The translations under genes were made by a program, and so were the position numbers. DNA of 64,000 bases from Candidatus Vogelbacteria bacterium (GTDB taxonomy: Bacteria; Patescibacteriota; Minisyncoccia; Phycocordibacterales; XYD1-FULL-46-19), in contig JAIOOX010000002.1 in the NCBI GenBank assembly GCA_021414225.1, positions 25,113-89,112 of the forward strand. Direction: 5' to 3'. Positions 381 through 58,483 of this stretch are shown here, in pieces; the first letter of the stretch is position 1, and each line of letters starts with the position of its first letter. The notes under the pieces are model-generated. The model did no database searches. It saw nothing but the letters and a program-made list of their open reading frames with translations, and had not been told where the DNA came from.

Positions 381-569
381 TCACCATTGGTGGTGACATT
401 TTTTGCAATATTTCAAGACACTTCGATTGTGGTCGGTACCGATCGGTTTAATCTTTGTTTTGTCGGAGTTCCCGCAATTCGGGCAGGAACCGAAAACCAG
501 AGATTTAATACCTAGGCGCAGACCTTTCCAGCTTTGACGGAGTTGCATCATCACCACTTCAATGTCCAT
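381..569 (-). CDS. Small zinc-ribbon protein (CxxC...CxxC), function unknown
   Basis: 62-aa ORF with CPNC and CKKC pairs. Diverges from the helicase-nuclease gene. Confidence 0.4.
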   Translation of the reverse strand: MDIEVVMMQLRQSWKGLRLGIKSLVFGSCPNCGNSDKTKIKPIGTDHNRSVLKYCKKCHHQW

Positions 570-668
570 GGCTAGTGCTCCTTTCTGGCTCTGTTATTAA
601 TCATAGACCTATTTAAGCTATAAAGACAATGGGTAAGCAAAAATTAGAAAATCATATATACTTTCCAT

Positions 669-3635
669 ATGTCAGATCTAGACTATAAATTCACTGAAGA
701 ATATAAGCGTTTAAATACTCACCAAAAGGAGGCGGTGGACACTATTGAAGGTCCGGTGATGGTGGTGGCTGGTCCAGGGACAGGTAAAACTCAAATTTTA
801 ACCTTACGCATTGCCAATATTCTCAAACAAACCGATACCGCCCCGGCTAATATTTTAGCCTTAACCTTTACTGAAAGCGCGGCGGCCAATATGCGGAAAC
901 GTTTAGCGACTATTGTTGGTAGTCGAGCCTACCAGGTGGTGATTAGTACTTTTCATGGTTTTTGTAATGACGTGATCAAAAATTATCCAGAAGAATTCCC
1001 GCGAATTATTGGTTCGACTAATATTACGGAGATTGATCAAATAAAAATCATCGAAGAGTTACTGAACAAGTTGCCGTTGAAAATTTTGCGACCATTTGGT
1101 GATCCGCTGTTGTATGTGAAGCCAATCTTGTCATCGATTAATGAATTAAAACGAGAAGGTTTGAGTCCAGCTGAGTTTACTCAGATTGTGGTTAAAAAAG
1201 ATAAATCGTTTGATCAAATTCCTGACTTGCGCCACGAGAAAGGAGCTCATAAAGGTAAAGTGAAATCAATGTACGAAAAGTTGCGTCGGCAGATTGATAA
1301 AAATTTGGAATTGGCCGACGTTTATGCTGGTTACGAAGCGGAACTGACTAAACGTAAATTTTATGATTACAGTGACATGATCATGGAAGTGTTGCGGGAA
1401 TTGCGAACCAATCAGACTTTGCTCTCTAGTCTCCAAGAAGAACATCAATACATTTTGGTGGATGAACATCAAGATACCAACAATGCCCAAAATAAAGTCT
1501 TGGAATTAATCGCTAGCTTTCATGACTATCCCAACTTGTTTGTGGTGGGGGACGAAAAGCAAGCTGTCTTTCGTTTTCAGGGAGCATCGCTAGAAAATTT
1601 TTATTATTTCAAACACCGTTTTCCAGAAGCTAAATTAATAGTCTTGGAAGATAATTACCGTTCGACACAGGCGATTCTTGACCAGGCTCATTCACTGCTA
1701 CCTGGTCAGGCGGAGTTGAAGGCTAACACGGGTCACTTAGCCGAATCTATCAAAGTAGCTGTCTGTTCGTCGCCCTTATCGGAGTTGTATTTTGTGGCTT
1801 CGTCCGTCAAATATCAGATTGCGTCCGGGGTTGAGCCGTCAGAGATAGCTGTTTTGTATCGAGACAATCGAGACGCTTTTCCTATTGCTAACGTACTTGA
1901 TAAATTGGGGGTGTCTTGTGTGATTGAATCTGATGACAATTTACTCGCCGATATTGATATTCGGAAGTTGCTGATTTTATTTAAAGCTATTTATTATTTT
2001 GATAATGATGAAGCTTTGGCTCAAGCTCTACATTTAGACTTCTTGGGAGTAGAACCAATTGACGCTTATGGTTTGATCAGACAAGCTAGTCAATCAAAAC
2101 AATCTTTGATTTCTTTGGTAGGCGGAAAGTTTCCAACCTTAGCCAAACAACTGTCCGATTGGAATGTGGCGAGCCATAATTTGGAATTACTACCACTCGT
2201 GGAGAAAGTTTTGAAAGAATCAAAGTTGCTAGACAGGCTAGTCACCAGCAGTACGGCTCGAAAACGGCTAGAGACCATTGGTGCTTTATTTAATACTATG
2301 TCTGATTTGGTGGCGAGCCATCCGGAAGCGGGGCTAGAAGATTTCCTCGAATTTATCGAAACGGTCAACAAACATCAAGTGTTATTGAAAAATAAAAGTC
2401 GAGCAAGTGTGGTTGGCAAGGTACGCCTGATGACTGTCCATCGGTCCAAAGGTTTGGAGTTTCAATCGGTCTTTATTATTGGCGCTTATGACGGTCACTT
2501 TGGTGGTCGGAGTAGTCGCGACAAATTGAAGTTATTGTCCGAAATATATCAGTTGGTTGATAGAGACAAAGAAGGGGGTGAAGAGGACGACAAAGATACT
2601 GGTGATGAACGACGCTTGTTTTATGTAGCCTTAACTAGAGCTAAGCAATTGGTCACCATTAGTTTGTCGGCGATTAGTGATAGTGGTCGTGAACAGGTGC
2701 CAAGTCAGTTTATTGCCGAACTGAAGCCTGAGTTAATAGAATATGTTGATACAAGTGGTTTGACTGACAAGTTAGCTGAAGTTCGAGAAACTTTGCTTAG
2801 CCCGACTCCAGCCAAGGAGAGTGACCTAAAGGATCGGGAATATATTGCTGGTTTGTTTCGTGATCAGGGTTTGTCGGTCACAGCTTTAAATAACTACCTG
2901 GCTTGTCCATGGCAATACTTTTATCGTAATCTCATTCGTTTGCCAGCGGTGCCGACCAAGCATCAGGCTTATGGTATTGCGGTTCACGCGGCCCTCAGAG
3001 ACGCCTTCAAGCATGCCAAGGAGCGAGATATTACCAAAGAGTCACTCTTGGCTAGTTTTGAGAAGTATCTTCGTCAGGAGCCGTTAACGGAAAAGGATTT
3101 GGTGGAGACCTTGGCAAAAGGTTTGGAATCACTTAGTGGGTGGTTTGATACTTATCACCAAAGTTGGAATATTAATGTGTTGACCGAGTTTAATATTAAA
3201 GGAGTGGAGTTAACTTCAGATATTAAATTGGTGGGAATGCTCGATAAAATAGAGTTTACAGGGGATGGTGCTGATGTAAATGTAGCAGATTATAAAACTG
3301 GCAAGCCAAAAAGCCGGAATGATTTGATGGGCGCGACTCGTGATGCGGATGGAAATTATTACCGCCAGTTGGTGTTTTATAAAATCCTGTTAGATTTATT
3401 TGAGGATGGAAAGTATAAGATGATGTCTGGGGAAATAGATTTCGTGGAGCCAAATGATACGGGGAAGTATAAAAAAGAAAAGTTTGAGATTCCAGATAAT
3501 GATGTGATTGAATTGACTGATACGATTAAAAAAGTGGCGGATGAAATTATTAATCTAAAGTTTTGGGATAAAACTTGTGATGATAAGGATTGTGAATACT
3601 GTGCCTTGCGACGGCTAATGACAGACGCTAACTAA
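669..3635 (+). CDS. ATP-dependent DNA helicase / nuclease fusion: UvrD-REP superfamily 1 helicase (N-terminal) plus a RecB/AddB/Cas4-like PD-(D/E)xK nuclease with a Cys cluster (C-terminal)
   Basis: Walker A GPGTGKT near the N-terminus, UvrD-like motifs (VDEHQDTN, TVHRSKGLEF, VALTRA). C-terminal D...IEF...DYKTGK...YYRQLVFY nuclease core flanked by CPWQY and CDDKDCEYC cysteines. Confidence 0.8.
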   Translation: MSDLDYKFTEEYKRLNTHQKEAVDTIEGPVMVVAGPGTGKTQILTLRIANILKQTDTAPANILALTFTESAAANMRKRLATIVGSRAYQVVISTFHGFCNDVIKNYPEEFPRIIGSTNITEIDQIKIIEELLNKLPLKILRPFGDPLLYVKPILSSINELKREGLSPAEFTQIVVKKDKSFDQIPDLRHEKGAHKGKVKSMYEKLRRQIDKNLELADVYAGYEAELTKRKFYDYSDMIMEVLRELRTNQTLLSSLQEEHQYILVDEHQDTNNAQNKVLELIASFHDYPNLFVVGDEKQAVFRFQGASLENFYYFKHRFPEAKLIVLEDNYRSTQAILDQAHSLLPGQAELKANTGHLAESIKVAVCSSPLSELYFVASSVKYQIASGVEPSEIAVLYRDNRDAFPIANVLDKLGVSCVIESDDNLLADIDIRKLLILFKAIYYFDNDEALAQALHLDFLGVEPIDAYGLIRQASQSKQSLISLVGGKFPTLAKQLSDWNVASHNLELLPLVEKVLKESKLLDRLVTSSTARKRLETIGALFNTMSDLVASHPEAGLEDFLEFIETVNKHQVLLKNKSRASVVGKVRLMTVHRSKGLEFQSVFIIGAYDGHFGGRSSRDKLKLLSEIYQLVDRDKEGGEEDDKDTGDERRLFYVALTRAKQLVTISLSAISDSGREQVPSQFIAELKPELIEYVDTSGLTDKLAEVRETLLSPTPAKESDLKDREYIAGLFRDQGLSVTALNNYLACPWQYFYRNLIRLPAVPTKHQAYGIAVHAALRDAFKHAKERDITKESLLASFEKYLRQEPLTEKDLVETLAKGLESLSGWFDTYHQSWNINVLTEFNIKGVELTSDIKLVGMLDKIEFTGDGADVNVADYKTGKPKSRNDLMGATRDADGNYYRQLVFYKILLDLFEDGKYKMMSGEIDFVEPNDTGKYKKEKFEIPDNDVIELTDTIKKVADEIINLKFWDKTCDDKDCEYCALRRLMTDAN

Positions 3636-17640: not shown

Positions 17641-17746
17641 TACTCCGAGGTGCTTCCGCAACAAAATAAACTTTAGCTGGTGTGGCTTTTATGCAGCGAT
17701 GGGGAAGTTTGTTAATTTTTAAAATGGGTTATTATTAACAGTAATT

Positions 17747-22116: not shown

Positions 22117-22122
22117 TGTTTG

Positions 22123-22564
22123 GATTGTTGTCGATAAGCCGAATTCTGTACCGATTTTGCCCACCACAGGGGACGCAAAATCGAGTACTCTGAGTTTATC
22201 GAAGAGTGGCCTTTCGACTAGCTCAAGGTGCTCAATTTTGTAATTACCTGCGGTGAACAAAATTGGCGATAGTTATTTATCTGGGATGAATATTACTATT
22301 CACCTCGAGCGGCACAAACCATTGGTAAACCAATGGAGTACGGCCTTGCACACACGTAAGGATTTAGCCGTTTCAGCCAAGTGTTGCCACCTGACAACTC
22401 CAGTCAGACTGGAGCCCTAGCCTTTCGGCGTTGGCGTTTCTGTTCGCACCTCGATCCTTGCGGACGACGGGTGTTACCCGCTACGCTTCCTGTTTACACA
22501 GGTATGTGTTCGGACTTTCCTCCGAGCACTATAAATAGTGCTCGGCAACTATCTGACAACAATC
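22123..22564 (-). ncRNA. rnpB: RNase P RNA (bacterial type A-like)
   Basis: On the minus strand: P1 pairing gattgttgtc / gacaacaatc at the two ends, P3 hairpin gagcactatttatagtgctc, universal P4 strands GAGGAAAGUCCGAAC (rc of 22511..22524) and ACAGAAUUCGGCUUAUC (rc of 22134..22150). The ORF-track ORFs at 22066..22260 and 22381..22581 fall inside it. Confidence 0.8.
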
Positions 22565-51961: not shown

Positions 51962-52492
51962 ATGACATATTTAAAATCAAAGAAGTTTAGTTGCTTGAGT
52001 CTCGGTTTATTTTTAGTGGCTATCATCTTAGTTCCAACTTTAGCTTTAGCTCAACCTGGTGGTTTGCCTGGTGGAGCTGGTAACGGGTCGGGCGGGAACG
52101 GGGGTCCTTCAGGGGGGGATATTCCTGGTGGTGATGGTGGTTCTGGGACTATTCCGAATAATACCAACCAGGGCTGCGATCTATCAACGGCTACTTTTAA
52201 GACGCTGGTCGACTGTGTTCGTGATTCAATCGTGGTGCCTATTATTAACCTACTCTTGGCTTTGGCGGTCTTGGTCTTTTTTTGGGGCTTAGTCAAATAT
52301 CTATATAAAGGTGATAACGACGCTGAGCGGACCAAAGGTAAAAGTTTGATGGCTTTTGGGATCATTGGACTTTTTGTAATGGTAAGTGTTTGGGGGATAG
52401 TTGGTTTGTTAACTGGAACTTTTTTTGGGGCTAGTGGTCCAGCAGGTGTTAATCCACCGGTTCCTCAGTTGCCAGCTAGTATTACTCTATAA
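51962..52492 (+). CDS. Pilin-like small protein, paralog 3, with a Gly-rich linker
   Basis: Signal peptide (LALAQP), GGxGG low-complexity linker, CDL...LVDC cysteine pair, then LALAVLVFFWGLVKYLYKGDNDAERTKGKSLMAFGIIGLFVMVSVWGIVGLL. Confidence 0.5.
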   Translation: MTYLKSKKFSCLSLGLFLVAIILVPTLALAQPGGLPGGAGNGSGGNGGPSGGDIPGGDGGSGTIPNNTNQGCDLSTATFKTLVDCVRDSIVVPIINLLLALAVLVFFWGLVKYLYKGDNDAERTKGKSLMAFGIIGLFVMVSVWGIVGLLTGTFFGASGPAGVNPPVPQLPASITL

Positions 52493-52552
52493 GGGTGGTA
52501 TAATGTTCTTATTATTAAATTGGGTCGTTTATTATTTTATTTTTTAAATTAT

Positions 52553-52933
52553 ATGAAGAAAGTTGTTGCAACAATTGGTTCTGGTTTAGCTTTGACGCCT
52601 TTCTTGGCTCTAGCTCAAAGTTTTGATCCGAATGGTTATATCGCAAGTATCATAACTTCCTTTAGTGGTTGGATTAATGTGCTTATCGGTATTTTGGTTA
52701 CCTTGGCCGTTTTGGTTTTTATTTGGGGTTTGATCACTTACTTGCTTAATGCTAGTAATGAAGAAAAGCGCTCAGATTCAAAGTGGTATATGATTTATGG
52801 TATAGTTATTTTGTTCGTTATGGTTAGTATTTGGGGTCTAGTAGGGCTTCTTCAAAATATTACTGGAGCGGAATCTAACGTAGACGCTGGTGGTATTGAT
52901 ATTCCAACAGTAACAGGTACAGATATTCAGTAG
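52553..52933 (+). CDS. Pilin-like small protein, paralog 4. Internal Met start used; the ORF track starts at 52520.
   Basis: Signal peptide (FLALAQS), then LIGILVTLAVLVFIWGLITYLLNASNEEKRSDSKWYMIYGIVILFVMVSIWGLVGLL. Very close to paralog 3 in the hairpin. Confidence 0.5.
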   Translation: MKKVVATIGSGLALTPFLALAQSFDPNGYIASIITSFSGWINVLIGILVTLAVLVFIWGLITYLLNASNEEKRSDSKWYMIYGIVILFVMVSIWGLVGLLQNITGAESNVDAGGIDIPTVTGTDIQ

Positions 52934-53260: not shown

Positions 53261-54142
53261 CTACATCTTGTATAGGTAGACAGTCACCGTGGTTTCCTTA
53301 CCATTGGTTGATTGGAACTTCAGTGTTCCGAGGTTGTTGAGATTGATGCCGTGGTTGACACCTTTCTCGGCTTGAGGGTTATCGGTGTAGGGCGCGTCCA
53401 TATATGGCCTCACCCCGTTTCCCACGACCATGACCACGTCGTGGGGATTGAACGTGACCTTGTAGTGGCTAACCACAAGAGTCACTTCCAGGTCCTTCTC
53501 GCCGGTTTTGGCCTTCATCTTGCCTTCCCCGGCGCTCGCTGTTTCGCCAATAGTCTTGGACCAGCCGGTGGCTGGTACAGAGACAGTGAACTTGGCGATG
53601 TCGTGTGCTCCCTCCGGTAACGGGCCGATCCGTTTGGGGTCGACCTTGGTTCCAGGTAGGGTGGGGAGACTCAAGTTCTGGAAAACAACCTTAGGGTCTG
53701 TTTCACCTAACCCATTAGCATTAGCTAGTGGAGTCAGAATCAACAAGAGTAACCCAGTGGTCAAGGCCGCTTTCCAGAAGCGTGACCTTCCAATCCTGAC
53801 GGCGTCTTTCTCGTAGGAGAGAAAGTACGAACCGCCAGCCATGAGAAGGACTACCATTGCGATGATGGTGTAGCCCGTGTTGGTCACGAACCACAAGAAC
53901 CAGGCTGGGAACACCCACCAGGTGGCGAAGACCACCACAGTCCAGTAGGCGACCCAGGCACCAGTTAGGAATGGATCCCACTCTGGACCTTTCGGTTTAG
54001 GGGCTGTTACGGGAGTGCCACCAGCAGTGGTTGTCCTGGGAGTTGGGCCTCCTGTAGATTTCCACATTTTTCTGACATCATCCCAGTATCGGAAGAGGGC
54101 TACTAACCCGATTCCGAGTAAGGCGATTGCTACCGAACTCAT
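53261..54142 (-). CDS. NfeD-like membrane protein (TM helices plus C-terminal beta-rich soluble domain). GC-rich foreign composition.
   Basis: 293 aa: Pro/Thr-rich linker, about four TM helices (WVAYWTVVVFATWWVF..., IIAMVVLLMAGGSYFL..., LTTGLLLLILTPL), beta-strand-rich C-terminus. Four-base overlap with the upstream SPFH-like gene. Confidence 0.35.
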   Translation of the reverse strand: MSSVAIALLGIGLVALFRYWDDVRKMWKSTGGPTPRTTTAGGTPVTAPKPKGPEWDPFLTGAWVAYWTVVVFATWWVFPAWFLWFVTNTGYTIIAMVVLLMAGGSYFLSYEKDAVRIGRSRFWKAALTTGLLLLILTPLANANGLGETDPKVVFQNLSLPTLPGTKVDPKRIGPLPEGAHDIAKFTVSVPATGWSKTIGETASAGEGKMKAKTGEKDLEVTLVVSHYKVTFNPHDVVMVVGNGVRPYMDAPYTDNPQAEKGVNHGINLNNLGTLKFQSTNGKETTVTVYLYKM

Positions 54143-55521
54143 GAAGTAGAACCTTTCTTTTTCCTCGCCGGCTTTTGAGTGGCTGGCGGAGTCGTAGGTT
54201 GAGTCTCCGGTTTTGTTTCAGAGACTTTTTTCAGGGTTTGGGCGATTTGGGTTGCTATCCCCGAGATACCCCCATCGCCGATAATGTGCACGGCATTGGG
54301 GTTGCTCAGGCCTGCCTTGGCCGCGTCAATGACAAGGGCCTCTTGGCCCGACACTCCCGTGGCGGTTTGGATTTTTTTGAGTCCAGCCGCCTCGGCAGTC
54401 ATCATTCGCAGGTGGTTGTTAGCGAGAGCTTCCCCTGCGCGTTGTGTTTCCACCCCTTTCCCAATAGACTCAGCGATTTTTTGGATCTCTGCGTTGAGGG
54501 AGTGACTGGTCAACACCTTGAAGTTTTTGACCTGAGTGAATCTCAAGCCAATCTCGTCTTCTATCAGTTTTCGCAGGGCGTTAACCGATAGTCTTTTGAT
54601 ATCTGGTCTGGTTGTGGTGGTCACCTCTTTGTAGTCTATCCTGTTCTCTGCGAGAGCTTCCAGGACATATCGGGTGACGTAGCGGCTGATAGCATCAACA
54701 TTACGTTGTGCGCGGGCCGCCGTGCCTACCTGGCAGACTGAGCGCATCCCACTTTCGATCAGGTCTCGGACGTAATTTGTGGCGTCCTCGATCGAGTCGA
54801 AAGCGATGTCAAACCGCAAGCCTTTGGTGATTTGCATTGTGTAGGACGCCGACACCTCCGCAATGACCCGGGTTTTAAGCGGGTCCTTGTATTGATCGGC
54901 TATCTCATCCTTAACTTGTCCCTTGTCTGGTTTTACCACCACTGCCGGGACGAAGTTGTATTTTTCCTCGGTGGCGGGATCTCCCAAAGTTGGAGTAATT
55001 GTCACCGTCTGACTCAGTATATCTTCTTCGTCGGCAGGATCAGCGGATTCAAACGGCACAAAAATTGGTTCTATCCAATAATCTGGTACCATCTTCCCAC
55101 TGGCATCCTTTTTCATCCCTTTTGGCTCAGAGGGTAGTGGTTGCGGATTTCCTTGGTCGTCCTTTCCCCTCCAGAGATCTTCTGGGTTGGCAGGTACTTC
55201 TCGGGTGATGATCGCTCTCGGGTAACGATTGACGGTTGTCAGTCCCCAAAATCCAGGGACGATACCAGCATCGATTGATCCGATGCGATAGCCCAGAAAT
55301 TGAAGGACCCCCACATCTTTCGCGCCGTCCACTTTGGTGTGAATGGTGCCGTAGAGACAGTAGGCAATCCACCAGATCAGTACGACGTTTCTCCAGTTGA
55401 TACTGGTGGACGTCTCATTTTGATTTTCCACCGGCAGGCCGTTAGGCATTGCCAAGTAGATGATCACAAAGATTGCTACCATAACCACGATGGACCATCC
55501 TGAATACTGACGGGTTGTCAT
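54139..55521 (-). CDS. SPFH / band-7 (stomatin/flotillin)-like membrane protein, divergent. GC-rich foreign composition.
   Basis: N-terminal TM helix, then GVLQFLGYRIGS...PGFWGLTTV resembling the SPFH core (ERFGRY...PGLxxxxPF). Long Ala/Glu/Gln-rich helical region and a basic Pro/Thr-rich tail. GC-rich third codon positions, unlike the neighbouring genes. Confidence 0.35.
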   Translation of the reverse strand: MTTRQYSGWSIVVMVAIFVIIYLAMPNGLPVENQNETSTSINWRNVVLIWWIAYCLYGTIHTKVDGAKDVGVLQFLGYRIGSIDAGIVPGFWGLTTVNRYPRAIITREVPANPEDLWRGKDDQGNPQPLPSEPKGMKKDASGKMVPDYWIEPIFVPFESADPADEEDILSQTVTITPTLGDPATEEKYNFVPAVVVKPDKGQVKDEIADQYKDPLKTRVIAEVSASYTMQITKGLRFDIAFDSIEDATNYVRDLIESGMRSVCQVGTAARAQRNVDAISRYVTRYVLEALAENRIDYKEVTTTTRPDIKRLSVNALRKLIEDEIGLRFTQVKNFKVLTSHSLNAEIQKIAESIGKGVETQRAGEALANNHLRMMTAEAAGLKKIQTATGVSGQEALVIDAAKAGLSNPNAVHIIGDGGISGIATQIAQTLKKVSETKPETQPTTPPATQKPARKKKGSTS

Positions 55522-55737
55522 CTTCTTTTCTCCTGGTTTTTGCCCTTAAGCAAACACCTTTTTGTTTGTTTCCAATCAACTGTCAACGACCTTTCAATAT
55601 CTCTACAGCAGGGGATAATAGCCCCAACTGAGTATCTTTACTTCCACTCTCTATTATATCAGGTTTTATGAAAAAGTCAAGGGGTCTTAAATAACAAAAT
55701 ACCCCTGAGAATTAGGGGGATTTTACTACAAATCCAG

Positions 55738-55866
55738 GCGAGGGGAGACTCGCCCGCGACTAAATTTTTTGTCGACACAAAAAATTTGTCTGGGCACCAC
55801 CTCGGCCCCAAACTCTGCTGAGTCTGGACTGCGTGGCCTCCGGTGTTCGAGTCTCCCCTCGCCCCT
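55738..55866 (-). repeat. Family 3 tRNA-spacer repeat, copy a, bounded by the 15-nt perfect inverted repeat gcgaggggagactcg / cgagtctcccctcgc derived from the tRNA-Leu(TAG) 3' end
   Basis: Contains the AT-rich hairpin aaattttttgt-cgac-acaaaaaattt and the conserved segment tctgggcaccacctcggcccc...ctggactgcgtggcctccggtgttcgagtc, homologous to 56330..56412 and more loosely to 56040..56115. Confidence 0.6.
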
Positions 55867-55913
55867 ACAAAATAAAAAGCCCCAAAGCTATCGCTTTGAG
55901 ACTTAATATTTTG

Positions 55914-55995
55914 TGAGCGAGGGGAGACTCGAACTCCCAACCCGTGAGGGACTAGTTCCTAAGACTAGCGCGTATACCAATTCCGCCACTCGCCC
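55914..55995 (-). tRNA. tRNA-Leu (anticodon TAG), type II
   Basis: Minus-strand read GGGCGAGTGGCGGAATTGGTATACGCGCTAGTCTTAGGAACTAGTCCCTCACGGGTTGGGAGTTCGAGTCTCCCCTCGCTC. Anticodon loop ctTAGga, long variable arm. Confidence 0.8.
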
Positions 55996-56023
55996 GATGT
56001 TTTGTTGTGAGAAATTCGGTCAC

Positions 56024-56166
56024 AAATAATTTTGCTGTGCAAAATTTTCGCGACCCCGCCTCGGTCACAGTCTTCGACTGGCTTTGCGACCTGTGGCTTT
56101 CGAATCCCTCACAGGGACTACCAAACAATATTCATTCAATATTTTATATTGAATTCATTTGTTTGG
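56024..56166 (-). repeat. Family 3 tRNA-spacer repeat, copy b, plus an 88-nt near-perfect palindrome (56098..56185) that runs into the tRNA-Lys 3' half
   Basis: ttcgaatccctcacaggg (56098..56115) is the exact inverted copy of the tRNA-Lys T-arm / acceptor 3' strand at 56168..56185. The spacer between them, actaccaaacaatattcattcaatatttt | atattgaattcatttgtttggtg, is itself palindromic. Confidence 0.6.
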
Positions 56167-56239
56167 TGCCCTGTGAGGGATTCGAACCCCCGACCATCTC
56201 CTTAAGAGGGAGTTGCTCTACCAACTGAGCTAACAGGGC
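56167..56239 (-). tRNA. tRNA-Lys (anticodon CTT)
   Basis: Minus-strand read GCCCTGTTAGCTCAGTTGGTAGAGCAACTCCCTCTTAAGGAGATGGTCGGGGGTTCGAATCCCTCACAGGGCA. Anticodon loop ctCTTaa. Confidence 0.8.
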
Positions 56240-56290
56240 AATTGTAGGATTATAGTTTATTTGAGGGGGAAATTCAATTTTATAACCAAG

Positions 56291-56433
56291 TAAGTTGGGA
56301 CTCTCCTTTGACTTAAAATTTTCTACCCGAAAATTTTAGTCTAGGCACCGCCTCGCGCCGAAATGTTGCTACATTTCGACTTCGTGCGCTCCGGCGTTCG
56401 AGTCCCACCCAAAATTTAACTTTGTTAAATTTG
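56291..56433 (-). repeat. Family 3 tRNA-spacer repeat, copy c, ending in an inverted copy (ttcgagtcccaccc) of the tRNA-Leu(TAA) T arm
   Basis: AT-rich hairpin gacttaaaatttt-ctacccg-aaaattttagtc, then tctaggcaccgcctcgcgccg...cgacttcgtgcgctccggcgttcgagtcccaccc, about 75% identical to copy a, then palindrome aaaatttaac-tttg-ttaaattt. Confidence 0.6.
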
Positions 56434-56514
56434 TGCCCGGGGTGGGACTCGAACCCACAAGGCTTGCGCCACACGATTTTAAGTCGTGCGTGTATACCAT
56501 TCCACCACCCGGGC
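56434..56514 (-). tRNA. tRNA-Leu (anticodon TAA), type II
   Basis: Minus-strand read GCCCGGGTGGTGGAATGGTATACACGCACGACTTAAAATCGTGTGGCGCAAGCCTTGTGGGTTCGAGTCCCACCCCGGGCA. Anticodon loop ctTAAaa. Confidence 0.8.
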
Positions 56515-56555
56515 ATATTTTTTAAAATCAATTTGCTACTGCAATTTGATTTTTG

Positions 56556-56627
56556 AGGCGTGGGCGGGAATCGAACCCGCGTATAAAGCTTTTGCAGAGC
56601 TTCGCCTTACCACTTGGCCACCACGCC
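56556..56627 (-). tRNA. tRNA-Cys (anticodon GCA)
   Basis: Minus-strand read GGCGTGGTGGCCAAGTGGTAAGGCGAAGCTCTGCAAAAGCTTTATACGCGGGTTCGATTCCCGCCCACGCCT. Anticodon loop ctGCAaa. Confidence 0.85.
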
Positions 56628-56634
56628 TGTAAGT

Positions 56635-56958
56635 TTAAATTGTATCTGCTTCGATATCAACTAATGCCTCATTCGAAGCAAGAGCGATGTCGATACGAGG
56701 CACATTACCGATTTTTGTCTCATTACGCAAATATTCATACAGGTCGGTTCTGAGACGCTTAAGTTCTTTCAATACCTCATCGGTAGCGGTATCTGGGAGA
56801 ACTGAGACGAAGACAGTCGCACTAGCGTTGTTTTTTTCCAATACACAACCAGTGACGGTTACTAGAGCTCGAGAAGCAACATTGCGCACAAAAAATTCTG
56901 CCGCGGTGCGAGTAATAACCTCTTCAACTCGTTTGTGATGTTTGGTGTAATCGTCCAT
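56635..56958 (-). CDS. rbfA: Ribosome-binding factor A
   Basis: 107 aa, immediately downstream of infB (conserved infB-rbfA order). ...VSVLPDTATDEVLKELKRLRTDLYEYL... KH-like. Confidence 0.7.
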   Translation of the reverse strand: MDDYTKHHKRVEEVITRTAAEFFVRNVASRALVTVTGCVLEKNNASATVFVSVLPDTATDEVLKELKRLRTDLYEYLRNETKIGNVPRIDIALASNEALVDIEADTI

Positions 56959-56971
56959 GGTTAATTATAGG

Positions 56972-58483
56972 CTATTTAGCCACTCGTTCAAATATTTCTA
57001 AAATATCACCAGGGGCAATAACGATCTTGGAATCAATCATGGTTCCAAATTGACCAGGTGGTTCAACGCGGTCGGTCTTGGCTTTATGTTGTTCAAGTTC
57101 GGCCACTTTACCTCGACCAATTTCAATGTCGCGACGGATAATTTTAATTTCTTTGCCTTTAACAAAGACACCGTCTAAGACTTGACCCCCGACTACTTGT
57201 TTATCTTTGTTGGCACTGAAACATTTTAGAATTTTGGCTCGGCCGGTTGTTTCTTCGATAGTCACTTTTGGTCGGCGTTTAGATACCTCCTCAGCTAGCC
57301 ACTCAGCTAGTTTGTAAATAATATCAAAAGTGACAATGGTAACATCAAATCGTTCAGCAATATCTTTGGCACTAGTGTCAGTTTTGACTTGGAAGCCTAA
57401 AATAATAGCGGAGTTTGAACCACTGCCTAGTTTGGCATCGTTGTCGGTGATAGCTCCAATACTCTTGCCGATAATTTTCAGGCGAACTCGTTCATCAACA
57501 ATTTTTAAAACTTCTTTTTCGACTGCTTCCAAGGTGCCAATAGTATCAGCTTTGATAATGATTGGTATTTCAATTGCATCAGCTCCTAGTTCTGGAGTGT
57601 GACTTGGGTTGTTGGTATTAGCACCTAGGGTGCGACCAGTTTTTTCATGATGATCAGCCGCTTTCTTGTCCTTTAAGCCGTTGATAATAGCTCCGACGGC
57701 TGGTACTTCAGCAAAACCGTAAAGAAGAACAGGGGAGGATAAGGTGGCTTCTTTTAAGGGTTGGCCTAAAAAGTTTTCCATCTTTTTAATTTTAGCTACC
57801 ACTCCTTCGACGCCAACATAGTCACCTAAGTGTAGGGTTCCATTTTTAATAATAGCTGTAACGGTCACTCCAATTTTTGGGTCACGATTGGTTTCCAAAA
57901 TCAAAGCTTCGCCAGGCAGGCTAGGGTCGCCACTTTTTGCTTCTAGATCTGAAACTAAAATAAGTAGATCCAGTAAATCATCAATCCCCTCACCAGTTTT
58001 AGCTGAAATATTAACACTAGGAATAGTACCTCCATATGACTCAACAAAGACTTCCTGTTCGGCTAATTCTTGTTTGACTTTATCGGGGTTGGCATTGGGT
58101 CGGTCGATTTTGTTGATAGCAACAACAAAGGGCACCCCAGCTTCTTTGACTGATTTGAGAGCCTCAATAGTTTGAGCTTTGACTCCTTCTTCAGCGGAGA
58201 CCAACAAAATAGCAATATCAGAAATTTGGGCGCCACGGTTACGCATGGAAGAAAAAGCTTCATGACCAGGTGTATCTAAGAAGGTGATGGTGTGTTCCTT
58301 TCCTTCGGTGACATGTTTAACTTCATAAGCGCTAACATGTTGAGTAATACCACCCGCTTCACCCGCGACAGTGTTTGATTTACGAATATAATCAAGCAAG
58401 GTTGATTTGCCGTGGTCAATATGACCAACAACAACCACGACAGGTGGTTTGGCTTTAATTGTAGATTGAGAATTATTAGTCAT
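56972..58483 (-). CDS. infB: Translation initiation factor IF-2 (compact, lacking the long N-terminal region)
   Basis: G domain VVVVVGHIDHGKSTLLD, DTPGHEAF, NKID. IF-2 domain II and C-terminal beta-barrels. 503 aa. Confidence 0.85.
   Translation of the reverse strand: MTNNSQSTIKAKPPVVVVVGHIDHGKSTLLDYIRKSNTVAGEAGGITQHVSAYEVKHVTEGKEHTITFLDTPGHEAFSSMRNRGAQISDIAILLVSAEEGVKAQTIEALKSVKEAGVPFVVAINKIDRPNANPDKVKQELAEQEVFVESYGGTIPSVNISAKTGEGIDDLLDLLILVSDLEAKSGDPSLPGEALILETNRDPKIGVTVTAIIKNGTLHLGDYVGVEGVVAKIKKMENFLGQPLKEATLSSPVLLYGFAEVPAVGAIINGLKDKKAADHHEKTGRTLGANTNNPSHTPELGADAIEIPIIIKADTIGTLEAVEKEVLKIVDERVRLKIIGKSIGAITDNDAKLGSGSNSAIILGFQVKTDTSAKDIAERFDVTIVTFDIIYKLAEWLAEEVSKRRPKVTIEETTGRAKILKCFSANKDKQVVGGQVLDGVFVKGKEIKIIRRDIEIGRGKVAELEQHKAKTDRVEPPGQFGTMIDSKIVIAPGDILEIFERVAK

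Follow-up and report, generated by a model that had tools for sequence, protein, structure and literature searches.

A Patescibacteria-wide family of folded elements with tRNA-matched arms behind tRNA and tmRNA genes

The stretch of DNA considered here, 64,000 nucleotides of the Candidatus Vogelbacteria contig JAIOOX010000002.1 (positions 25,113 to 89,112; hereafter the window), carries a locus of four transfer RNA (tRNA) genes on its minus strand, for which the calls of ARAGORN and Rfam agree (Table 1). The genes for tRNA-Cys and tRNA-Leu(TAA) are separated by a gap of 40 nt that lacks an element, and a non-coding stretch of 168-193 nt follows each of the other three tRNAs, namely E1 behind tRNA-Leu(TAA), E2 behind tRNA-Lys and E3 behind tRNA-Leu(TAG). 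These three spacers are copies of a Patescibacteria-wide family of elements, approximately 170-200 nt in length, that lie 3′ of tRNA and transfer-messenger RNA (tmRNA) genes. An initial annotation of this DNA had described the array as having a repeated spacer at each tRNA. The four-tRNA array and its repeated spacers are real, as recovered by ARAGORN, Rfam, a repeat search and a covariance model; the repeat is present behind the two tRNA-Leu genes and tRNA-Lys, but not in the short Cys-Leu spacer. This latter spacer (56515-56554, minus strand) contains an AT-rich hairpin of 13 bp of its own, and a full element is found there in the orthologous array of a relative (L122, discussed below).

Two subtypes of the element are represented in the window, with E1 and E3 belonging to subtype A and E2 to subtype B. 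E1 and E3 share a direct repeat of 80 nt (55779-55858 and 56330-56409) at 73% identity, and within the 64-kb window exact matches to GGCACCRCCTCG are found only at 55793 and 56344, and to CTCCGGYGTTCGAGTC only at 55838 and 56389, where 0.3 would be expected. Each unit bears an inverted copy of the T-loop and T-stem of its neighbouring tRNA, which in two of them extends to the 3′ strand of the acceptor stem. Such copies had been claimed in the initial annotation and are indeed found, as perfect inverted repeats of 15 nt at tRNA-Leu(TAA) (56396-56410 and 56440-56454), of 18 nt at tRNA-Lys (56099-56116 and 56169-56186), forming the core of an 88-nt palindrome, and of 16 nt with the tRNA-Leu(TAG) sequence (55737-55752 and 55848-55863), a third and direct copy of which lies within the tRNA-Leu(TAG) gene itself (55917-55931). 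To these can be added a direct copy of the tRNA 3′ part, which closes every unit; in E3 it matches without error over 16 nt, and in E1 and E2 it is degenerate. A covariance model derived from the elements of relatives recovers all three units in a search of the whole window (E = 5e-19 for E1, 4e-18 for E3 and 4e-5 for E2; scores in Table 1), finds nothing beyond them at E < 0.8, and places an element at 3 of the 11 window tRNAs. A candidate fourth copy, a weak pattern match behind tRNA-Ser at 17646, was rejected, with the covariance model (filters off) and nhmmer both negative there. None of the three units contains an open reading frame (ORF).

Table 1. Genes and element features of the tRNA array and its surroundings, in window coordinates.
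Feature	Position	Strand	Remarks
infB	56972-58483	-	upstream of tRNA array, same strand
rbfA	56635-56958	-	upstream of tRNA array, same strand
tRNA-Cys(GCA)	56555-56627	-	ARAGORN and Rfam; first gene in array; no element behind
tRNA-Leu(TAA)	56433-56514	-	ARAGORN and Rfam; parent tRNA of E1
E1 AT-rich hairpin AAATTTAAC-AAA-GTTAAATTT	56412..56432	-	from tRNA end to inverted arm
E1 inverted arm and anti-T-loop TGGGTGGGAC-TCGAAC	56396..56411	-	reverse complement of tRNA-Leu(TAA) GTTCGAGTCCCACCC; 15 nt, 100%
E1 core, subtype A	56302..56401	-	model match 77.7 bits over 56291-56411
E1 degenerate direct copy of tRNA-Leu(TAA) T-loop and T-stem 3′ strand	56294..56303	-	GAGTCCCAAC versus GAGTCCCACC
Sigma-70-like promoter TTGAAT-17-TATAAT	56249..56277	-	between E1 and tRNA-Lys; kept in L122
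tRNA-Lys(CTT)	56164-56239	-	ARAGORN and Rfam; CCA encoded; parent tRNA of E2
Near-perfect palindrome, ~88 nt	56098..56186		tRNA-Lys 3′ part (T-loop to CCA), AT-rich spacer and inverted copy
E2 core, subtype B	56016..56103	-	model match 25.3 bits over 56005-56113
E2 degenerate direct copy of tRNA-Lys 3′ part	56004..56017	-	GAATTTCTCACAAC versus GAATCCCTCACAGG
tRNA-Leu(TAG)	55913-55995	-	ARAGORN and Rfam; parent tRNA of E3
Terminator-like hairpin and U-run	55877..55904	-	between tRNA-Leu(TAG) and E3 inverted arm
E3 inverted arm and anti-T-loop GGGGCGAGGGGAGAC-TCGAAC	55845..55866	-	complementary to tRNA-Leu(TAG) T-loop, T-stem and acceptor 3′ strand
E3 core, subtype A	55750..55850	-	model match 74.4 bits over 55739-55860
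E3 direct copy of tRNA-Leu(TAG) 3′ part CGAGTCTCCCCTCGCC	55737..55752	-	16 bp perfect pairing with inverted arm

The family extends far beyond this locus. A scan of 185,579 species genomes with the pattern GGCACCNCCTCG-N(25-45)-TCCGGNGTTCGA, for which we estimate about one chance match, returned at least 120 loci; among the matches listed, 116 of 120 are real, and all but four, which are GC-rich chance matches, come from metagenome-assembled genomes of Patescibacteria, including Saccharibacteria, Paceibacterota/Parcubacteria, and Kaiser-, Taylor-, Uhr-, Woese-, Morani- and Yanofskybacteria. A scan of metagenomes with the 3′ half of the E2 type, GAGGCGGGGTCGCGA-N-TGTGACCGA, likewise returned at least 120 loci, and the family statistics given below derive from the loci among the matches listed in these two scans. 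The spacers are thus decisively not confined to the present locus; confinement to it was one of the outcomes that the initial annotation had named as speaking against its proposal. A complete element with a perfect direct repeat is also found behind tRNA-Arg(CCG) on a contig binned as Bdellovibrionales (L002; CAZATJ010000009.1), which could be a case of mis-binning or a rare occurrence outside Patescibacteria. An origin from phage was rejected, as the pattern is without a match in 2.9 million viral contigs. Rfam 15 at its gathering score matches only the four tRNAs in the window, yields only hairpin-type microRNA noise on the units at E ≤ 10, and gives no match overlapping the elements in 13 related loci. 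No description of the element was found in the searchable full-text literature, which does not cover subscription journals, in searches that included its invariant 12-13-mers.

The association of the element with the 3′ ends of tRNA and tmRNA genes is strict. A tRNA or tmRNA was called within 400 nt of 99 elements, and every one of these is located downstream of the gene's 3′ end in a single orientation, 90 of them within 150 nt and with a modal distance of 55-65 nt, and at least 35 anticodons, together with tmRNA, are occupied. In a profile search, 103 of 115 evaluable copies of subtype A have a same-strand tRNA or tmRNA within 300 nt upstream, as do 86 of 103 copies of subtype B within 400 nt, and some of the remaining units follow tRNAs that ARAGORN overlooks. 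The element of L005, for example, looks like an orphan because an intron makes ARAGORN miss its tRNA; this is a group I intron (386-698, plus strand; Rfam, 60 bits) inside the gene upstream of the element. The T-loop sequence TTCGA is displayed by 106 of 111 occupied tRNAs, compared to 84 of 107 unoccupied ones in the same loci. At two loci, L019 and L099, the arms match a tRNA-Ser-like 3′ end (..CCTCCGCCA), and the upstream RNA-like sequence, which instead ends in ..GAGTRGCCCGCA, escapes both ARAGORN and Rfam.

Read on the tRNA strand, the 5′ part of a unit comprises a variable spacer, then y′, an inverted copy of the acceptor 3′ strand found (at ≥ 8 nt) in 19% of units and in E2 and E3 of the window, and then, in approximately 60% of units, a hairpin, H0. 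The following segment, x′, is an exact inverted copy of tRNA nucleotides 59-65 and is joined to an anti-T-loop (AWTCGAA) and an invariant TCGAAC. Its length beyond TCGA has a mode of 6-7 nt and a mean of 5.9, compared to 1.3 with permuted partners. The core opens with helix P1 (CGCC/GGCG), which surrounds a GGAG/CGAG G-A motif and hairpin H1 with a loop of mostly AGCA, and continues in subtype A as GGTGCC-YAGAC-H2-AGTCGMRGGMGA, where P3 is CCY/RGG and P2 is GAC/GTC, and in subtype B as GGGGTCGCGA-H2-(A)NTTGTGACCGA, where P3 is GGUCGCGA/UUGUGACC and two G-U pairs are needed. Accordingly, the order in E1 is TCGAAC-P1-GGAG-H1 (loop AGCA, ACGAAGT bulge)-CGAGGCGGTGCC-TAGAC-H2-AGTCAAAGGAGA, and in E2, with the same P3 and its two G-U pairs, TCGAAA-GCCACAG-H1-CGAGGCGGGGTCGCGA-H2-ATTTGTGACCGA. 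After its final GA, the unit ends in a direct copy of the tRNA from nucleotide 57 or 59 to approximately 74, with the endpoint at nucleotides 73-75; exact direct repeats of at least 12 nt are present in 57% of 102 pairs (mode 18-19 nt), compared to 0.05% in the null. The unit is a T-arm mimic with a three-way junction instead of a loop, because the x′/x stem reproduces the T-stem of the neighbour and the core stands where the T-loop would be. This T-stem mimic is general across the family, and the tRNA-proximal part of the spacer varies with its tRNA, as the initial annotation had noted.

The inverted arms of the window are atypically long, with 9, 13 and 12 nt beyond TCGA in E1, E2 and E3, respectively, and they therefore form striking palindromes. 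Quasi-palindrome correction against the nearby T-arm may have rendered these arms perfect and extended them. In minimum-free-energy folds, full-length transcripts of the window favour pairing of the tRNA 3′ half with the inverted arm, and by this modelling it is possible that sequestration of the tRNA 3′ end is thermodynamically feasible in this genome. Sequestration cannot be the general function of the family, because only about 7 nt, the T-stem, are complementary in most relatives. Two further ideas were tried and rejected: AACGNAGTGA is not a general motif, since only 19 of 186 units have it to the left of the core, and the direct copies are not reverse-transcribed from mature tRNA, as 38 pairs lack CCA in both copies and only 2 gain it, and as the duplicated piece at one locus (L154) includes upstream flank.

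The fold of the core was examined for covariation in 118 aligned units, with 500 column shuffles and slid partners serving as controls. The proposed helices are paired in 85.7-92.9% of cells, compared to 69-77% in shuffled and 34-57% in slid alignments, and cells with changes on both sides number 330-611 compared to 92-203 in the shuffles, none of the 500 reaching the observed values. The column pair 81/130 of H2 is occupied by A-U 46 times, C-G 46 times and G-C 15 times, the pair 78/134 of P3 by C-G 94 times and U-A 16 times, and the pair 17/71 of P1 by G-C 111 times and A-U 7 times. Among 103 cores of subtype B there are 80 distinct H2 and 92 distinct H1 sequences, all of them hairpin-forming. 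In 99% of copies the tRNA strand gives the more stable fold of the core, with a mean advantage of 6.8 kcal/mol; many of its GC-rich stems carry CGAG/CGAG tandem G-A pairs, which become pyrimidine-pyrimidine mismatches on the opposite strand, just as the G-U pairs of subtype B become A-C mismatches. Fold stability, G-A pairs and G-U pairs are therefore all specific to one strand, and the form under selection is a single strand of tRNA sense, for which read-through RNA and single-stranded DNA (ssDNA) both fit the data. A tRNA-like gene on the plus strand was rejected, with ARAGORN and Rfam negative on that strand and its fold worse.

These observations refine several further statements of the initial annotation. 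Its contention that the architecture is selected and not due to chance is upheld by the conservation of the family over Patescibacteria and by the covarying helices. Its AT-rich hairpin is a part of the spacer, as described, and the far-side hairpin (H2) in addition belongs to the conserved covarying structure. The conserved block it had written on the plus strand exists, but the strand that folds is the minus, or tRNA, strand. Its suggestion of a role in termination does not hold for the element itself, as the core is without a U-tract directly after a hairpin, the feature of an intrinsic terminator; E3 and approximately 25% of units do have a terminator-like hairpin, but as a separate structure that comes after the tRNA and before the core.

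There are signs of gain, loss and rearrangement of units among relatives. L122 is the only close relative with a syntenic array (RbfA 62% identical, tRNA-Cys 100% identical), and in it tRNA-Cys carries an element whereas tRNA-Leu(TAA) does not, opposite to the window. Its tRNA-Cys element is a mosaic of an E1/E3-like H1 and an E2-like 3′ half. Tandem identical units occur 138-180 nt apart at four loci (L054, L081, L093 and L119), truncated or incomplete cores are seen in others, and elements at different tRNAs of one genome have variable stems that are closer than those of random pairs (percentiles 0.85-0.995; n = 4). At five loci (L078, L139, L154, L238 and L240), a partial 5′ copy of a tRNA, reaching to about nucleotide 53, is followed by the core and then by the complete same tRNA with a new 5′ flank, the partial copies stopping at the last nucleotide of the T-stem 5′ strand. 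The core variant of these five loci begins G53-CTTG-hairpin-CAAG-AGCCG, and L139 and L238, which are orthologous tRNA-Lys loci, show compensatory changes in its CTTG/CAAG hairpin. At L154 three partial copies are nested, with 24 nt of the upstream flank included. At L238, a tRNA-Lys spans the junction only by way of a truncated 3′ arm, with the complete tRNA-Lys also present downstream. At L047 (approximately 2150-2420, plus strand), a subtype A element splits tRNA-Ser(GGA) at the T-loop, and no 3′ part is duplicated; acceptor and T-stems match between the halves, but a canonical TTCGA loop does not reappear when the element is removed in silico, and the split gene is either a pseudogene or one needing some processing. 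A general T-loop intron was rejected, as in-silico removal restores the tRNA in only 2 of 26 orphan units.

No gene was found to be associated with the element. The neighbours in the window are infB, rbfA and ORFans, with no integrase near the units, and a cis-encoded protein of the family was rejected after clustering 1745 ORFs of 116 loci, in which no ORF family occurs in more than 11 loci. The commonest of these families are all housekeeping, namely the CCA-adding enzyme, BipA, UPF0102, ABC-F and Mur ligases. The gene for the CCA-adding enzyme (PolyA_pol and HD domains) begins at a median of approximately 150 nt downstream of the element in 11 loci (L029, L044, L045, L068, L110 and others), usually on the same strand and usually after tRNA-Gly(GCC), in conserved synteny, and a regulatory link between this enzyme and the element may be worth considering. 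Beyond E3 lies a GC-rich island of two co-oriented minus-strand ORFs of 460 and 293 amino acids (53261-55521; GC ~0.53 compared to ~0.40 around it), with a promoter-like site of its own. Neither protein has a Pfam or NCBIfam domain, and the 460-residue protein, which has a hydrophobic N-terminal segment, is an ORFan whose sole database match is itself (the NCBI product is shorter, at 397 amino acids). The initial annotation had regarded the array as an integration hot spot for this island, a proposal that is not supported: no distal copy of the tRNA-Leu(TAG) 3′ end lies beyond the island and no integrase is present. The island was also rejected as an integrated element in its own right, for want of a distal att copy, an integrase, a domain or any homologue of the 460-residue ORF, and nothing links island and element mechanistically. 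Just past the GC-rich pair, two adjacent T4SS_pilin (PF18895) genes are found at 51962-52933 (plus strand). Elsewhere in the window, a class A bacterial RNase P RNA (22119-22564, minus strand; 130 bits) probably contains insertions, because at 446 nt it is longer than the 367-position model.

Our preferred interpretation, to which a rough probability of 0.45 is attached, is that the unit is a mobile element, selfish and non-autonomous, that centres on the tRNA T-loop and integrates through a tRNA-derived arm. The T-loop is the fixed point of every arrangement seen. A single crossover via such an arm, usually the 16-20-nt 3′ arm and rarely the 53-nt 5′ arm, would rebuild an intact tRNA and leave a direct repeat behind. 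The common arrangement (complete tRNA followed by unit and 3′ copy) and the rare one (5′ copy and unit ahead of a complete tRNA) are what recombining once, through one arm or the other, would be expected to give. Since both homology arms are tRNA sequence, homing into empty orthologous tRNA genes after DNA uptake would be feasible, and recombination between the repeats would lead to deletion of the unit or to its tandem duplication. The active form would be the folded single strand of tRNA sense, either as RNA co-transcribed with the tRNA or as ssDNA. The initial annotation had named recombination or attachment among the possible roles, and this fits the direct repeats of the tRNA 3′ part and the gain and loss between relatives. 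A fuller version can be put forward tentatively, in which the element would be an unrecognised Patescibacteria-specific mobile structured nucleic acid, landing on the universal T-arm of tRNAs. The junction would then be the active part, whether as a ribozyme-like or protein-recruiting RNA or as an ssDNA recombination site, the sense and antisense arms would recognise both strands of the T-arm, and the element could insert into tRNA or tmRNA genes of every kind and still leave a functional tRNA in place.

Several points weigh against mobility. Only one comparison of filled and empty sites between relatives is available, and no excision products or circles of the element were seen. None of the copies was found to adjoin a transposase, integrase or reverse transcriptase gene, and a trans-acting or host factor must therefore be assumed. 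The arms would have to be re-templated on each new tRNA, and for the matching of the 7-nt inverted and the 16-20-nt direct arm to a new tRNA we have no mechanism to offer. Co-transcription with the tRNA is not guaranteed, because the terminator-like hairpin precedes the core in a quarter of units. The near-invariant junction exceeds the conservation that homology-driven spread needs, in part as an effect of the search patterns. Lastly, several Paceibacteria species retain the element at a tRNA-Gly(GCC)-cca site, with compensatory changes, which resembles long-term retention and could point to a host function.

Such a function is the basis of the main rival interpretation, which we consider unlikely: that the family is a host non-coding RNA set in a T-arm mimic, with its junction as a protein-binding or catalytic module for tRNA maturation, surveillance or regulation. 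The RNA would be expressed from tRNA operons, its tRNA-derived stem and tail providing stability, processing or access to tRNA-binding proteins. The strong covariation and the near-invariant junction nucleotides throughout the superphylum are as expected for such an RNA, as are a fold that favours the transcribed strand, the retention at tRNA-Gly(GCC)-cca, a GA-type (k-turn-like) motif that can be read from the sequence at the P1/H1 junction alongside the tandem G-A pairs of the stems, and the approximately 75% of units with no terminator between tRNA and core. However, the element is patchy even within one genome, as the 3 of 11 tRNAs of the window illustrate, and the tRNAs at which it is found differ between related genomes; some copies are truncated, degenerate or in tandem; arms that copy the neighbour serve no evident need of a trans-acting RNA; and since y′ is present in only 19% of units, processing of the RNase P or RNase Z type is unlikely to be general.

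An intron-like insertion into the T-loop, of a reverse-splicing or splicing-endonuclease type and with most copies made harmless by duplication of the tRNA 3′ or 5′ part, is considered improbable. It would account for the tRNA-Ser halves that flank the element of L047 without duplication, for the junction-spanning tRNA-Lys of L238 (though with a truncated 3′ arm and with a complete tRNA-Lys behind it) and for the end of the partial 5′ copies at the last nucleotide of the T-stem 5′ strand. The unit also contains, much as an internal guide would, a stretch complementary to the flanks of the insertion point on either side (nucleotides 53-58 and 59-65), and the minimum-free-energy fold of the E3 transcript pairs the 5′ acceptor strand of the tRNA with the distal direct copy. 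Yet the unduplicated type makes up only 2 of 198 evaluable units, the tRNA of L047 minus its element lacks a canonical TTCGA T-loop, and the core of approximately 110 nt matches no intron or ribozyme family. Moreover, the 24 nt of upstream flank duplicated in L154 point to a duplication at the DNA level, and CCA is as good as never gained by the direct copies (the 2 gains and 38 double absences counted above).

It is very unlikely that integrase-driven genomic islands left the units behind as scars or att sites, each marked by a displaced fragment from the 3′ end of the tRNA. Direct repeats of the tRNA 3′ part do start in the T-loop, tmRNA genes are likewise used, and a compositionally odd ORFan island adjoins E3, but there is no integrase in or beside the units, that island lacks a distal att copy, viral contigs contain no match, the units are uniform in length with a covarying fold, and the single conserved core at more than 35 tRNA species differs from attP sites, each of which is specific to one tRNA. 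Least credible of all is a functionless by-product of template switching at terminator hairpins after tRNAs, with the shared block as a local duplication, for although many units have a terminator at the apex of a palindrome that reaches into the acceptor strand, and although the window palindromes are far longer than the family norm, with an extra length in E2 and E3 that quasi-palindrome correction could explain, this leaves unexplained a core conserved across phyla with compensatory changes, a fixed orientation and a direct repeat.

Patescibacteria, also known as the CPR, have genomes of about 1 Mb that are strongly reduced, yet many of their lineages maintain multiple copies of a folded element of approximately 200 nt at tRNA genes. 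Should the element be mobile, non-coding DNA or RNA would have a new route by which to parasitise biology's most conserved genes without lethality, and the pair of sense and antisense arms would be a natural means of recognising a structured target in programmable fashion. Should it be a host RNA, it would be a new superphylum-wide, tRNA-linked non-coding RNA in hosts whose RNA processing is almost unstudied. In either case, the family model would be of use in the annotation of CPR genomes, and it would account for tRNA-proximal palindromes that break assemblies and point out partial or split tRNA copies missed by tRNA finders.

Known systems share individual features with the element, to varying degrees. 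Group I and II introns are set apart by the element's core of only ~110 nt, the absence of any Rfam match on the elements and the upstream tRNA that is intact in approximately 90% of units. Miniature inverted-repeat transposable elements have fixed inverted arms, whereas those of the element are copied from the target, and the duplication measures 16-20 nt compared to 2-10 bp. Archaeal non-canonical tRNA introns and split or permuted tRNAs likewise show extra T-loop sequence complementary to the exon around the junction, and a rare true split is found here at L047; in contrast, the hosts of the element are bacterial, 99% of units lie beside a complete tRNA, and no bulge-helix-bulge motif was identified. 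R2 in the 28S ribosomal RNA genes, with its HDV-like ribozyme, tRNA-linked SINEs and tRNA-snoRNA units all reside in or behind a stable-RNA gene and use its features, and the element, like them, is probably expressed by read-through. Those systems, however, are eukaryotic, and the element bears no sign of reverse transcription, as judged by the absence of CCA gain.

Closer parallels are found among integrative elements that target tRNA and tmRNA genes, whose sublocation classes were reportedly set out by Williams in 2002. Islands of this kind that rely on tyrosine integrases insert at the 3′ side of the gene, keep the tRNA intact and leave a displaced 3′ copy, starting in the T-loop, at the far end. 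The direct repeat of an att site is present in the element as well (16 nt in E3; ≥ 12 nt exact in 57% of 102 pairs), although the element has neither integrase nor cargo, measures only ~170-200 nt, and combines one core at more than 35 tRNA species with an extra inverted T-stem copy and a covarying single-strand fold. The non-autonomous palindrome-associated transposable elements (PATEs) derived from the IS200/IS605 group and their right-end guide RNAs, the omega or reRNAs of TnpB and IscB, resemble the element in a scaffold of about 110-130 nt, a variable 3′ segment of 16-20 nt that equals the target, an insertion point after a fixed pentanucleotide (TTCGA in the element) and a single strand that folds. 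IS200/IS605 insertion does not duplicate the target or restore the gene, whereas the element has a direct repeat and an inverted arm that find no counterpart there, and TnpA, TnpB and IscB are absent from the recurrent ORF families in the element neighbourhoods of 116 loci.

Integron attC and the attP(+) of CTX phage are folded single-strand sites that need IntI or XerCD and are conserved in structure with little conservation of sequence. Like these sites, the element is strand-specific, tolerates mismatches, has covarying hairpins and, when folded, presents a stem that reproduces the target duplex; it differs in its nearly invariant junction, in a target that is the tRNA T-arm, and in having no known recombinase. 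Its strand-asymmetric fold is compatible with an attC-type folded ssDNA site, and is the sole compatible observation. With a mechanism that we infer, the element is rated as lying outside the known kinds, since it departs in at least one defining feature from each of the families for which such features could be tested.

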